Of a DNA stretch of 64,000 bases, positions 3,895 through 64,000 are shown in pieces. The notes beneath the pieces were generated by a model. That model saw only the letters and a program-made list of their open reading frames with translations. It had not been told where the DNA came from and searched no databases. Numbering within the stretch: position 1 is the stretch's first letter; each line of letters starts with the position of its first letter. The stretch is from a phage. The position numbers and the translations under genes are program-made. The DNA lies in the sequence record PZ171032.1. One strand, 5' to 3'.

Positions 3895-4173
3895 TTAGGC
3901 AATTGTCATTTTACATTCTTGAAATTTTAACACAAGACGGTGATTGTGTCTAGTGTCTAAAAAGATTTTTTCAACCATCAGGCACACGGTATAACCGTCC
4001 ATCTTGTTGACAACAAAATCTCCAGGATGAGGGAGGATGTCTCCCGGATTGGGGAAACATAGTCCACTCAGAAAGGCATCGTCAGTGGTGGACTTAATAG
4101 ATTTCCACACACTGTCTGCCTGAACATGTTCACCGACGTAATATACATTACCACATGCCTTCATCATAGTCAA
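3895..4173 (-). CDS. hypothetical protein
   Basis: 92-aa ORF. Confidence 0.45.
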   Translation of the reverse strand: MTMMKACGNVYYVGEHVQADSVWKSIKSTTDDAFLSGLCFPNPGDILPHPGDFVVNKMDGYTVCLMVEKIFLDTRHNHRLVLKFQECKMTIA

Positions 4174-5069
4174 ACCCTCGCATAAATTAAACTTGTATCA
4201 GTATACTTCTTTAATGGGTAAATATCCTGTCCATAGATGCAATCATTAAACACCTCATCTACCCAAAGGCTACACTTATATCCCATCATTTCTAAAACAC
4301 CCATCTCTTCTTCGGTAAACTTATCACCGCTCTTGCAAGATGTCAATACCTCATTCTGAACTCTTGCTACCTCGAAGCGGTTATTGGCAATATCGCTATT
4401 GGCGATCAAATACTCACCTAGAGGGTGTGCGGCATTAAAGATGCACAGTGGACGGCTGACGTAATAGTCTCCGGGTGTATAAAAATTGTTGAGGTCTTTC
4501 ACTAGAACATTCTTATCAGTCACTTCATTTATAACATCATGCATATCGCACATCTTTATATGTTTGAGGATTCCATCCCCCATCACAAAATAAAAACTTG
4601 CTGAGACACTTTCGGCATAGATCTTACTAGATCCGTTGTAGTTGTATTTTACTCGGATGCTAACGGGGGTTTTTCCTGTCGCGTTAGCCATCATCCAAAG
4701 AAATGGCAGCTCATACTTCTCCTCTGAGGAAACAAAAGGTGAGGTAGCCAGAGATCGAAAACCTCCAGAGAAGTTGAAAGTTACAGAACCGCTCCGGCGG
4801 TATGATACCGCGTATTCTACTTTTATATCGACATACCCATTGGAATAGGTGTGTCCTTCATTATCTAAATATGTCCACTTATCAGACCCAGATACCAATC
4901 TACGCTCAATAACCTTCATCACTATAGGAATTAATGGGTTGGTACAAACCGCTTTTGAAGTAGCTTTATCATCTAAAGCCTCGTAAATTGCAGAAAGGAT
5001 GTCCCCAGCTGAAAGATTGGTTGTTATGTCCTGTTTCCACCGCGTACTAAAACTGTTAAGATTTGCCAT
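4170..5069 (-). CDS. hypothetical protein (first gene of leftward early operon)
   Basis: 299-aa ORF; AGGAG RBS; lies immediately downstream of leftward promoter. Confidence 0.55.
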   Translation of the reverse strand: MANLNSFSTRWKQDITTNLSAGDILSAIYEALDDKATSKAVCTNPLIPIVMKVIERRLVSGSDKWTYLDNEGHTYSNGYVDIKVEYAVSYRRSGSVTFNFSGGFRSLATSPFVSSEEKYELPFLWMMANATGKTPVSIRVKYNYNGSSKIYAESVSASFYFVMGDGILKHIKMCDMHDVINEVTDKNVLVKDLNNFYTPGDYYVSRPLCIFNAAHPLGEYLIANSDIANNRFEVARVQNEVLTSCKSGDKFTEEEMGVLEMMGYKCSLWVDEVFNDCIYGQDIYPLKKYTDTSLIYARV

Positions 5070-5109
5070 AAGTAAGTGCTCCTATGTTAGTTTTCTTTCG
5101 AATGGGTGC

Positions 5110-5138
5110 ACTATATTGTGGAGTTAGAGTAAAGTCAA
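5110..5138 (-). promoter_or_regulatory. sigma70-like promoter, leftward (TTGACT-17 bp-TATAGT)
   Basis: On minus strand: -35 TTGACT (plus 5133-5138), 17-bp spacer, -10 TATAGT (plus 5110-5115); upstream of gene 4170..5069. Confidence 0.55.
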
Positions 5139-5151
5139 CACGTTTTTGATG

Positions 5152-5180
5152 TTGACATCTGTTGAGACAATTGATACGAT
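5152..5180 (+). promoter_or_regulatory. sigma70-like promoter, rightward (TTGACA-17 bp-TACGAT)
   Basis: Consensus -35 TTGACA at 5152-5157, 17-bp spacer, -10 TACGAT at 5175-5180. Lies inside the 5' extension of ORF 5146..6189, so the gene more likely starts at 5212. Confidence 0.55.
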
Positions 5181-5211
5181 TTCTTCACTTACAGAGCACG
5201 AGAGACGACTC

Positions 5212-6189
5212 ATGAATCTTGAAAAATATTATACACCAGAAGAGTTAGAGCGCTTGCTCAAAAAATATAGACGCAAACAGAATAACGCACGGAAACGAGA
5301 TATAGAGTTCGACCTGTCATGGGAAGAATACCTCCTATTTGGTAAAAAACTTTTAGGAGATGGAGTATGCGACTATACCCTTATACCTTTTGACATGCAC
5401 ACAGATGAAAACGGGCTGGGGAATCCTTTCTACCCATCTCTGGAGCGGATAGATGATGAAGGTCCTTATGCGGTTGATAACTGTTGTGTGGTGGGATTGA
5501 GATGCAACTCTCTAAAGGACTGTCTGGTAGATAAAAAGACTGCAGTCTTGATTAAAGACGAAACTGATCGAAAAATTGTCCAGCAGATGATGCTCCACCT
5601 GAGCGAAGAGCGTATGGAGAAATTGAAAGGTGATTATACTTTTGAAGATTTCATCTTGCAATATGGAACGGAAGAGGATAAACTAGCACTCTTTGACGAA
5701 GAAGAGGAGGAAGATATGCTACCGATGTCTAAAGTTACTTATCGTGCACCCAAGAAGCACATTTCCGACATTGTAAACGAGCCTATCACAGAAGAGATTG
5801 AAGAAATGACGCAACAGGTGCATGAAGAGGAAAAAGAGACTCAGGAGGTCGAAGAGGAGATTACAGAAGAGGTTCCTGCACTACCTGATGATGTTGAGAT
5901 TGCCAAAGCTTACACTTTCTATTGTCAAACGTTCTACGATGTAGGTATGAAAGTTGATCTGTCGTTCAGCCAATTTAAGAGTTCGTATATTCGCAAATGC
6001 TGTGCTTTAACTGGTGAACGTCTTGGAGCTGGACTTAAACCCCTGTTGGTGACCGACTGGAATAAAGGTTTCACTAAAGGAAACTTTATGGTAGTATCTC
6101 CAATTATGGAGAAAGCTATGACAGATCTTATGAAGACCACCCGCATGACAATGACCGAGTTGGCAGGTATTTTCAAACACGTTAAATAA
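5212..6189 (+). CDS. hypothetical protein with two homologous half-domains; possible internal start at 5716
   Basis: ORF track 5146..6189; start moved to ATG 5212 downstream of promoter. N- and C-halves share a DLSW/DLSF..C..T...VTD/ERID..G...N..VV pattern; acidic linker; internal GAGGAGG RBS + ATG at 5716. Confidence 0.5.
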   Translation: MNLEKYYTPEELERLLKKYRRKQNNARKRDIEFDLSWEEYLLFGKKLLGDGVCDYTLIPFDMHTDENGLGNPFYPSLERIDDEGPYAVDNCCVVGLRCNSLKDCLVDKKTAVLIKDETDRKIVQQMMLHLSEERMEKLKGDYTFEDFILQYGTEEDKLALFDEEEEEDMLPMSKVTYRAPKKHISDIVNEPITEEIEEMTQQVHEEEKETQEVEEEITEEVPALPDDVEIAKAYTFYCQTFYDVGMKVDLSFSQFKSSYIRKCCALTGERLGAGLKPLLVTDWNKGFTKGNFMVVSPIMEKAMTDLMKTTRMTMTELAGIFKHVK

Positions 6190-6201
6190 TGACAGGGGCC
6201 A

Positions 6202-7683
6202 ATGGCCCCTTCTGGAGTTTTAATGGATAGCAGAAGTTCAGAAATCATTGCCTCGCAGAAAGATGATGCCCTGAGAATGTTGCAGGCTGCACGTATGTAT
6301 CTCCTTGAAAAGCTGCCGTTTTATGGCACACTACTGTCAGGGTTGCAGTTCGTAGAAAACCACACATGGTGCTCCACCATGGCAACCGACCATAAACGCA
6401 TCTATTACAGTCCTGAGTTCATTATGGGATTGGCTGATGAGCGCAAGGCTATTCTTAAGGCTTCTCTAACTGACGAGCAGTTTGAGATGGCTGAAGTTTT
6501 CTATTCCCCAAAATCTGTGAAAGAGGTGGCCTTCCTTCTGTCACATGAGGTGGGGCATATTATCTGTGATCATCTAGTCCGTGGTAAAAGCTTTGAGCCG
6601 GAACTGTTCAATATTGCTTGTGATCACGTTATCAACACAGGCCTTGTGGTTGACTTTAGCAAACCTCCTTGTGTTTTCTTCCCGAAGGGGAAAAGCACTA
6701 CGTTCATGAAAGGTAAGCCTTTTGGCTTCTTAGCCAGCTGCTACTGTGACATGAGGTTTCATGGATGGATTGCTGAGAACGTTTATGCAGTTCTTGATAA
6801 GCAAAGAGATCAGAATAACGGTAAAAGTAAGAACGGTAAAGGTGAGAACTCTCAAAGTGATAAGCGACAAACCGATGATCACATGAGTGGGAACGGTGGC
6901 ACCAGTGATAATCTTGGAAAGGCTATGGGGTATGATCAGCCACAACCTGTAATCAGCCAATCTGATAAAGATCAGGCCATGCAGGACTCTGGTGATATGC
7001 TGGAGGCAGCAATGCAAGCTTCCGGAGGTCGTTGCCCTGAGGCGGTGCGTGAGTTTGTCAAGAACAGGGGTAAGCCTGTAATCAACTATATAGACATCAT
7101 TAAGCAACGCATGTTGTCTAAACGAAAGGCTGAACTGACCTACAGAAAACCTGGTCGCCGATCTGGGTCTTTGACCAGCACAATGCGAAAAGTTGGGGCT
7201 ATAAACAAGAACCAGCACGTTATTGTTCCCGGTCGTAATCCGGAAAACACCATAGATATTGTTGTAGCTTTAGACGTTTCTGGCTCGATCTCTCAAAGAA
7301 CTTTAAAGAAAATGTTCAATGAAATCACCGGATTGTGCAATCTGTATAAAGAGTTTAAGGTTACAATGTTCTGTTGGTCAACTGAGGTTGGAGAGGTTAA
7401 AGTATACACTCGCGGTAACATAGATGAGATGATCAACTATGAGGTCCACTCAACATGGGGCACAACAGCTGCTTGCGTGTTCGAGTATCTAGATGCCAAC
7501 ATACCAAATGCAAAAGATGTCATCGTATTGACCGACCTATACTTTGAGCATAACTTTGAACAAAAGGCTGTTGACAACAAGTGGAAAAAGTACGATACTT
7601 TATGGGTTCTCACCGAAGGGTATAATAAAAATTATATCCCTAGCTTTGGGAAAACTGTGGAATTAATCGAGTACGCTAAGTAA
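6202..7683 (+). CDS. VWA-domain protein with N-terminal HExxH metallopeptidase-like domain (DUF2201-like)
   Basis: 493 aa; HEVGHIICDH zinc-peptidase-like motif near N-terminus; C-terminal IDIVVALDVSGSIS (DxSxS MIDAS motif of von Willebrand A domains). Confidence 0.65.
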   Translation: MAPSGVLMDSRSSEIIASQKDDALRMLQAARMYLLEKLPFYGTLLSGLQFVENHTWCSTMATDHKRIYYSPEFIMGLADERKAILKASLTDEQFEMAEVFYSPKSVKEVAFLLSHEVGHIICDHLVRGKSFEPELFNIACDHVINTGLVVDFSKPPCVFFPKGKSTTFMKGKPFGFLASCYCDMRFHGWIAENVYAVLDKQRDQNNGKSKNGKGENSQSDKRQTDDHMSGNGGTSDNLGKAMGYDQPQPVISQSDKDQAMQDSGDMLEAAMQASGGRCPEAVREFVKNRGKPVINYIDIIKQRMLSKRKAELTYRKPGRRSGSLTSTMRKVGAINKNQHVIVPGRNPENTIDIVVALDVSGSISQRTLKKMFNEITGLCNLYKEFKVTMFCWSTEVGEVKVYTRGNIDEMINYEVHSTWGTTAACVFEYLDANIPNAKDVIVLTDLYFEHNFEQKAVDNKWKKYDTLWVLTEGYNKNYIPSFGKTVELIEYAK

Positions 7684-7698
7684 GAGAGGAGGTTATTT

Positions 7699-7962
7699 AT
7701 GGCAACAGAGTTAAAATTTGCATCAAACCGTAAAACTAAGAAGTATCTGTCCTCAGTAGCTCCAGGCACTGTGGTGATGTTTGTTGATGAACTTGGGGAT
7801 GTGAATACAGCACTTGTTGTAAAATCACATCCTGCAAACATATATGTTGGGGTATTTGACCTGTTCAGAAAGGTGTTTGTAGAACTGCCTCACAGTTTGG
7901 TTGTTACAGAAATGGATGCCTGCATAGAAATTCTTGGCGAAGTTATGGTGGAGGAACAATAA
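7699..7962 (+). CDS. small protein, tandem paralog family member 1 of 4
   Basis: 87 aa; strong GAGGAGG RBS; shares K..GTVV...ILGE pattern with next genes. Confidence 0.6.
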   Translation: MATELKFASNRKTKKYLSSVAPGTVVMFVDELGDVNTALVVKSHPANIYVGVFDLFRKVFVELPHSLVVTEMDACIEILGEVMVEEQ

Positions 7963-8225
7963 TGGCTACCAGCATTGTATTCAATTCTAAGGTGAAGAAC
8001 AAAAAGCGTGCAGACAGTTTTCCGTGTGGGACCGTGGTAAGTTGCGACGGAGACGGCATTCAAAACATAGTTATGATTGTCAAAACAGGAGAACATTGTG
8101 TGTGGGGGTTCGATTTAGAAAATAATGAGTTGTACGATCTGCCGCCAAACATGAAAGTTACAGAGCTTGACACCAAAATTACCATCCTTGGAGAGACAAG
8201 CTATTCAAAAGAAGGAGGAGAATAA
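7962..8225 (+). CDS. small protein, tandem paralog family member 2 of 4
   Basis: 87 aa; ATGA start/stop overlap with member 1; GGAGG RBS; conserved CGTVV and ITILGE motifs. Confidence 0.6.
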   Translation: MATSIVFNSKVKNKKRADSFPCGTVVSCDGDGIQNIVMIVKTGEHCVWGFDLENNELYDLPPNMKVTELDTKITILGETSYSKEGGE

Positions 8226-8488
8226 TGACCACAAAAATCACTATCGCAGAACCGAAAGCTAACACTCAGCCTATCGAAAAGTTTAAGTGCGGTGAGGTGG
8301 TAACATTCACACCAGATAATGAAGATGCTAAGATTTTCGCAATGGTCACAGCTGAGTGGATGTGTGACAACACCACACAGGTTCTGCGTTTTGACACCTA
8401 TCTTACCGATGAAATCAGGAACGACAAGATTGTGACTGGTGTGGATACTGAGATTGTTTTCTACAAGAGCTTTTTAGAGGGTTTCTGA
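8225..8488 (+). CDS. small protein, tandem paralog family member 3 of 4
   Basis: 87 aa; ATGA overlap; AAGGAGG RBS; KCGEVVTF motif. Confidence 0.55.
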   Translation: MTTKITIAEPKANTQPIEKFKCGEVVTFTPDNEDAKIFAMVTAEWMCDNTTQVLRFDTYLTDEIRNDKIVTGVDTEIVFYKSFLEGF

Positions 8489-11511: not shown

Positions 11512-11540
11512 TTGACACCACCACCAGATCTATATATAAT
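11512..11540 (+). promoter_or_regulatory. consensus sigma70 promoter (TTGACA-17 bp-TATAAT)
   Basis: Exact -35 TTGACA at 11512-11517, 17-bp spacer, exact -10 TATAAT at 11535-11540; about 33 nt upstream of ATG 11573. Confidence 0.6.
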
Positions 11541-63431: not shown

Positions 63432-63918
63432 AGCTGCCTCCTCTTCAAGTTATAGAAAAACTTACTGTATCGCTTTGTAACGAGCTTTTCTATCAAACTG
63501 GTGCGATTGCCTTACTTGGTATAGTTTATATGGCTGTGGAGCGATTTAGGGGCCTCATTGTCCGTTTCCACACATAAACTTTATCCAAACTCGCGCGGGA
63601 GGCTCTCAACCGACTCCTTACGGCGCTGGCAAGCTTTCGTCGGTGGTCCACATTAGTGCTCGGCCTTTGGCCTGCGCTATCGCTTCGCTCCCACACATGT
63701 TAACAGACCTGCATGTGTGCACTATGGAGGCCCGGCATCTCGCCCCTCGTAGGCGAGTGCCAATGAAGGGCCGACACTACCTATAGTAAGTAATAAATTT
63801 AAAACATGGTACTTAGGATCTAGTATATTCTACATAAGTTAAGTATATGTACTTTAGTACCATAAGTACTAGATCTTTTATTTTTTTATTATTTAGTTAT
63901 TTTAGTTATATTCTTTAT

Positions 63919-64000
63919 GTGTCCGTATCACGGACAGTAGTGTCCGTATCACGGACAGTAGTGTCCGTATCACGGACAGTAGTGTCCGTATCACGGACAG
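63919..64000. repeat. tandem direct repeats of a 21-bp unit GTGTCCGTATCACGGACAGTA (3.9 copies, truncated by window end)
   Basis: Exact copies at 63919-63939, 63940-63960, 63961-63981 and a partial fourth; each unit has inverted repeat GTCCGT-atc-ACGGAC. Confidence 0.9.

Follow-up and report, generated by a model that had tools for sequence, protein, structure and literature searches.

Many classical back-to-back divergent promoters have a regulator site in the region that they share, and this arrangement is reportedly included, as a general bacterial one, in a classification by Beck and Warren from 1988. Symmetric bidirectional promoters (Warman, Grainger and colleagues; PMC12825309) have their symmetry in a -10 region that both directions share; the spacing of their divergent transcription start sites (TSSs) is typically 18 bp, with 10 and 23 bp as further common values, and one polymerase binding event excludes the other. 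For phages of the genus Certrevirus, a putative early promoter of the form AAAA(N3-4)TGTTGAC(N17-19)TATAAT has been published (Buttimer et al. 2020, PMC7344957). The closest described system is phage rV5, for which a paper of 2013 (PMC3606486; text and Table S4) predicts two promoters, P010 on the minus strand, CAAAAACGTG-TTGACT-17-TATAGT, and P011 on the plus strand, TTGACATCTGTTGAGACAATTGATACGAT, with TGATACGAT marked.

The window, that is the whole stretch of 64,000 nucleotides analysed (record PZ171032.1), carries the orthologue of the P010/P011 pair, and the pair as such is thus already known. Its rightward promoter (5152-5180) is identical to P011, its leftward promoter differs from P010 within the spacer only, and the flanking genes (gp10 and the Srd-like gp11) are the same, the comparison being between a murica-type species and rV5 itself. 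The promoters of the rV5 paper are also predictions only, and the palindrome discussed below is unmentioned there. In phage Gotham (MT682716), two PhagePromoter predictions map exactly to 5110..5138 (minus strand) and 5152..5180 (plus strand) of the window. A search for TSS, transcriptome or promoter-activity studies of Vequintavirus or Vequintavirinae found none in the searchable literature.

The 2.2 kb round the promoter site match at least 118 phage records, with 99.9% identity to Escherichia phages pangalan, CM1 and Murica, so that the window is, as judged from sequence identity, a murica-type Vequintavirus (rV5-like, Vequintavirinae). Sixteen records labelled ‘Campylobacter phage’, some of them UNVERIFIED, share 91-99.7% identity with rV5-like phages of E. 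coli. The promoter site lies in an intergenic region of 142 bp (5070..5211) that separates divergent genes at 4170..5069 (minus strand) and 5212..6189 (plus strand). The former, first gene of the leftward unit, is the homologue of rV5 gp10; it matches phrog_12338 (unknown function) and has no Pfam family, and its GenBank label ‘alpha 1-3 fucosyltransferase’ is unsupported. The latter, first gene of the rightward unit, is the Srd-like homologue of rV5 gp11, which matches phrog_3118 and, more weakly, Srd and ‘decoy of sigma70’ PHROGs. It is followed by a gene for a DUF2201 metallopeptidase/VWA protein, inconsistently labelled ‘HNH endonuclease’ or ‘anti-sigma factor’ in several GenBank records and PHROGs. 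Between these two genes stands a perfect G+C-rich hairpin, AGGGGCCATTGGCCCCT, at 6194..6210, a terminator in the Murica annotation, which could attenuate read-through past the first gene of the rightward unit. Further along the plus strand, three consecutive open reading frames of 87 amino acids (7699-7962, 7962-8225 and 8225-8488) adjoin one another, each stop codon abutting the next start codon; to the eye the first two resemble paralogues (MAT...K.K...GTVV...), and none of the three has a Pfam family. A 12/12 sigma-70 consensus, TTGACA-17-TATAAT with AAAATTAAGC upstream, occurs at 11512..11540 (plus strand), ahead of the last open reading frame of the rightward unit, and is the counterpart of rV5 P025.

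Both promoters named in the preliminary description were recovered by a consensus scan, the leftward TTGACT-17-TATAGT on the minus strand at 5138..5110 and the rightward TTGACA-17-TACGAT on the plus strand at 5152..5180. Each matches the consensus at 10/12 positions with a spacer of 17, and each is oriented toward a gene. The leftward -35 hexamer, TTGACT (5133..5138, minus strand), agrees with TTGACA at 5/6 positions and its -10 hexamer, TATAGT (5110..5115, minus strand; P010 of rV5), is a 5/6 match that ends 41 bp from the gene start at 5069. The rightward -35 hexamer, TTGACA (5152..5157, plus strand; P011 of rV5), is a 6/6 match. Its -10 hexamer, TACGAT, reaches 4/6, so that both -10 hexamers are imperfect, and is preceded by a TG at 5172-5173 that is absent from the preliminary description; together they form an extended -10 element, TGATACGAT (TGn plus TACGAT; 5172..5180, plus strand), which ends 32 bp from the ATG at 5212. 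The gap between the two -35 hexamers is 13 bp (5139..5151), with a conserved T-tract at 5143-5147. Read on the minus strand, the gap places AAAAA-CG-TG ahead of TTGACT, in keeping with AAAA(N3)TGTTGAC; the upstream context of the rightward promoter is TTTTT-GA-TGTTGAC, with a T-tract and not an A-tract. Sites of at least 10/12 occur in the window about once per 3.9 kb per strand. The pair exceeds chance, since two correctly oriented sites fall within a divergent region of 142 bp and are selectively conserved.

This conservation was followed in a junction alignment of 14 sequences, made up of the window, seven GenBank Vequintavirus genomes (A13b, O157 typing phage 14, FV3, slur16, bov11CS3, SophiaRose and JeffSchatz) and six IMG/VR contigs, in four of which the gp11 homologue is only ~64% identical; about 18 of the roughly 90 genomes of other genera were sampled in addition to the 14 aligned. 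Mean column identity is 71%. Invariant positions number 21/26 in the promoter elements vs 29/116 in the rest of the intergenic region (Fisher p = 1.8e-7), a statistic that may be inflated, as the hexamers could in part have served as anchors when the most divergent sequences were aligned. Both -35 hexamers are invariant throughout (6/6 positions in each), as are positions 1, 2, 3 and 6 of the leftward -10 hexamer and T5172, G5173, T5175, A5176 and T5180 of the rightward extended -10. As a phylogenetic footprint of two sigma-70 promoters, the pattern is a textbook case and, together with the earlier rV5 and Gotham predictions, it bears out the claim of two divergent back-to-back promoters of this type. 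The gap has conserved positions of its own: T5144-T5147 and A5140 are invariant, and A5140 and C5139/G5151, the sixth pair of the palindrome arms, are conserved beyond the bare need of a -35 box. Because of these positions, some extra constraint on the gap would seem to exist. The gap measures 13 or 14 bp among the 14 sequences, and T5150 is the least conserved column (36%), being T in 5/14, G in 5/14 and A in 4/14.

The preliminary description also preferred the start at 5212 over that of the open reading frame 5146..6189, and this preference was well founded: PHROG alignment, database records and upstream stop codons agree that ATG 5212, not TTG 5146, is the true start of the Srd-like gene. 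The open reading frame list starts at 5146 only because no start codon stands between the preceding stop and this TTG. The alignment to phrog_3118 begins at residue 3 of the short form, and most GenBank records begin the gene at the equivalent of ATG 5212; slur16 and SophiaRose carry the longer reading frame, promoter included. In other genera, a strong AAGGAG precedes the homologous ATG, and an in-frame stop lies 2-10 codons upstream of this ATG. An alternative ATG at 5149 is destroyed by T5150G in half of the genus, and the putative 5' extension (5146-5211) contains conserved promoter elements.

The divergent pair is not confined to Vequintavirus. It is kept at the orthologous junction of Seunavirus, Mydovirus, Avunavirus and others, at 37-40% protein identity, with a rightward promoter of the form TTGACA-17-(G/A)ATAAT and an opposed -35-like hexamer, AATCAA or AGTCAA. 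The hexamers are there 3 bp apart (AATCAA-GTG/GGG/GTA-TTGACA, and AGTCAA-CGC-TTGACA in Av-05), so that a gap of 3 bp in four other genera stands against one of 13-14 bp in the Vequintavirus group, a difference of about one helical turn that is suggestive, though geometry only. A second back-to-back pair occurs at the junction of Murica genes 73 and 74 (65439..65499 in Murica, outside the window). Its leftward promoter, TTGAAA-17-TATACT, is P081 of rV5; its rightward promoter, TTGACA-17-CAGGAT after TGG, is absent from the rV5 table; the -35 boxes are again 3 bp apart (TTTCAA-GTG-TTGACA), the geometry of the gene 10/11 junction of the other genera. This second pair shows that back-to-back promoters are a routine feature of these phages where the strand switches. 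The 73/74 junction lies past the window end, where the window sequence differs from Murica. The window closes with a tandem 21-bp unit, GTGTCCGTATCACGGACAGTA, at 63925..64000, which continues past the end, is palindromic within each unit (TGTCCGT-ATC-ACGGACA) and is preceded by an AT-rich stretch at 63790..63920; Murica has a different sequence at the equivalent place.

The perfect palindrome GTCAACA-CGTTTTTGA-TGTTGAC is present at 5134..5156 as claimed, of the type GTCAACA-N9-TGTTGAC with arms at 5134-5140 and 5150-5156 and CGTTTTTGA as its centre. The statement that the -35 elements are its arms holds for five of the six bases of each hexamer, but two bases of each arm lie upstream of the hexamer. 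Arms of 5 bp are automatic, since opposed TTGAC sequences are reverse complements of each other (GTCAA/TTGAC), and the two extra pairs arise because both promoters carry TG directly 5' of TTGAC. In the window and 50 kb of Murica, this TG precedes 20/76 promoter-like -35 sites and 54/338 of all TTGAC (16-26% of TTGAC or promoter-like sites), and two opposed TTGAC would agree in the dinucleotide upstream of each with a probability of ~0.077 in the phage's own TTGAC contexts. Given two opposed TTGAC, the palindrome is therefore not beyond chance. No further copy with ≤2 mismatches was found in the 64-kb window, and the 50-kb early region of Murica gave 3-mismatch matches only, 4 against 2.8 expected, which is chance level; the palindrome is thus unique in ~114 kb. 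Among the 14 sequences its arms are 7 bp long in five, 6 bp in eight and 5 bp in one. As DNA it folds with -5.4 kcal/mol (z = -1.6), as well as which 17/200 shuffles fold. The variable arms and gap, the 3-bp gap elsewhere, the lack of recurrence, the weak hairpin and the lack of a DNA-binding domain in the 14 neighbouring proteins scanned indicate that no constraint acts on the palindrome as such, which would be a by-product of opposed extended -35 elements, not an operator. In general, any back-to-back consensus -35 boxes form an inverted repeat, a trap for the annotator, since such palindromes are not by themselves evidence of an operator.

The preliminary description had seen in the palindrome a site at which a single dimeric regulator could switch both operons. 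In such a scheme, a phage or host dimer on GTCAAC(A)...(T)GTTGAC would occlude both -35 boxes and shut off or activate both units. Overlap with both -35 boxes is the classic position of a repressor, arms of 6 bp are kept in 13/14 Vequintavirus-like sequences, A5140 and the T-tract do not vary, and a downstream gene that is Srd-like makes a theme of transcription control plausible. Yet the -35 boxes by themselves account for five of the six or seven arm bases; the seventh pair is broken in 9/14 relatives, and the other arm has no symmetric change; the arms are separated by N9, N11, N12 or N13, which leaves half-site spacing unfixed; and the 3-bp gap of the other genera has no room for the same operator. 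The recurrence typical of a regulon is also missing, the 64-kb window holding no second copy within two mismatches, and TGTTGAC is the extended -35 of the published early-promoter consensus of the subfamily. With a polymorphic seventh pair, variable spacing and a single occurrence, an operator for both operons is quite unlikely. None of the 14 neighbouring proteins scanned has a DNA-binding Pfam domain, and a search of the flanking proteins for candidate regulators found, near the site, the PHROG labels Srd-like and ‘HNH’ only. We know of no E. coli transcription-factor motif that matches GTCAACA-N9-TGTTGAC. An invariant T/A-tract, conservation of the sixth arm pair and two gap lengths, 3 vs 13-14 bp, could instead mean that gap spacing and content are functionally constrained and that RNA polymerases or another factor treat the pair as a unit. 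This is unlikely; if true, mutually exclusive or cooperative firing would, for example, balance the replication-gene unit against the Srd-like unit. A specific form of coupling, in which the alpha C-terminal domains of the two RNA polymerases compete over the A/T tract, or use it jointly, and gap length sets the leftward:rightward ratio, would profit from the same invariant tract, from -35 boxes 13-14 bp apart, whereby the -40 to -60 region of each promoter overlaps the -35 box and spacer of the other, and from gaps that differ between genera by about one helical turn. The argument is however purely geometric, a one-turn difference across two states could be coincidence, and variation between 13 and 14 bp speaks against strict phasing, so that this form is very unlikely.

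Least credible is a role outside transcription initiation, with the hexamers as chance matches and the palindrome as a hairpin element, be it a bidirectional terminator, a replication origin or a packaging signal. A terminator scan does pick it out on the minus strand, as a stem of 8 pairs (G-T counted, 3 of them G-C) followed by TTTACTCT, and the minimum of the cumulative GC skew falls near 4-5 kb. But the hairpin is weak by the folding values given above, the flanking genes both point away and leave nothing to terminate, and the skew minimum is explained by the coding-strand switch with which it coincides. Furthermore, conservation resides in the hexamers and the extended -10, not in stem pairing, and the 14 sequences have no compensatory changes. 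An intrinsic terminator was rejected on its own account, the hairpin having only 3 G-C pairs at -5.4 kcal/mol and standing upstream of both genes.

It is thus probable that 5070..5211 contains two independent promoters for the host sigma-70 RNA polymerase, placed back to back, with the palindrome as a by-product. We infer that both promoters are used: the host sigma-70 holoenzyme would initiate leftward near 5103 and rightward near 5187, which puts the predicted TSSs ~84 bp apart. As these TSSs flank the palindrome, the latter would be left untranscribed. The leftward promoter (P010 type), AAAAA-CG-TGTTGACT-17-TATAGT, would serve the gp10 homologue and a long minus-strand unit of presumably early and replication genes, which would run from gene 10 to gene 1 and then across the genome end into a region that encodes many small genes besides rIIB, helicases and DNA polymerase. 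The rightward promoter (P011 type), TGTTGACA-17 with the extended -10 TGATACGAT, would serve the Srd-like gene from ATG 5212 and a short plus-strand unit, comprising small open reading frames to ~12 kb besides the genes for the Srd-like and DUF2201 proteins. The T/A-tract in the gap most likely serves the leftward promoter as an UP-like element, because its minus-strand A-tract adjoins the leftward -35 box and because an A-tract lies upstream of 24/76 promoter-like sites (window and 50 kb of Murica) and is part of the published consensus. The region for the alpha C-terminal domain of each promoter would overlap the -35 box of the other, and some interplay is possible. The pair being ordinary and already known, two independent promoters would change little beyond annotation hygiene. 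They do add comparative evidence lacking in the original paper, in that the rV5-like gene 10/11 junction has two conserved promoters of host type, and the Srd-like gene is shown to start at the equivalent of ATG 5212, where records such as slur16 and SophiaRose have the longer frame that takes in the promoter.

Compared with the described systems, the junction resembles the back-to-back class in having promoters on opposite strands, abutting upstream regions and non-overlapping transcripts; unlike in many classical examples, no regulator site is supported in its shared region. The leftward promoter, AAAA-ACG-TGTTGAC-T-N17-TATAGT, fully fits the Certrevirus pattern, which was defined in another genus and is predicted only. 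The rightward promoter shares TGTTGAC with this consensus but has a T-tract, not an A-tract, upstream and would rely on its extended -10. The two extra bases of the palindrome are explained by the same consensus, where TGTTGAC is the extended -35. A symmetric promoter with a shared -10 was considered and rejected, the -10 elements being separate and 59 bp apart (5116-5174). With symmetric bidirectional promoters the junction has in common that divergent transcription is tied to pseudo-symmetric promoter DNA; here, however, the symmetry lies in the -35 boxes, each promoter has a -10 of its own and the predicted TSSs are ~84 bp apart.
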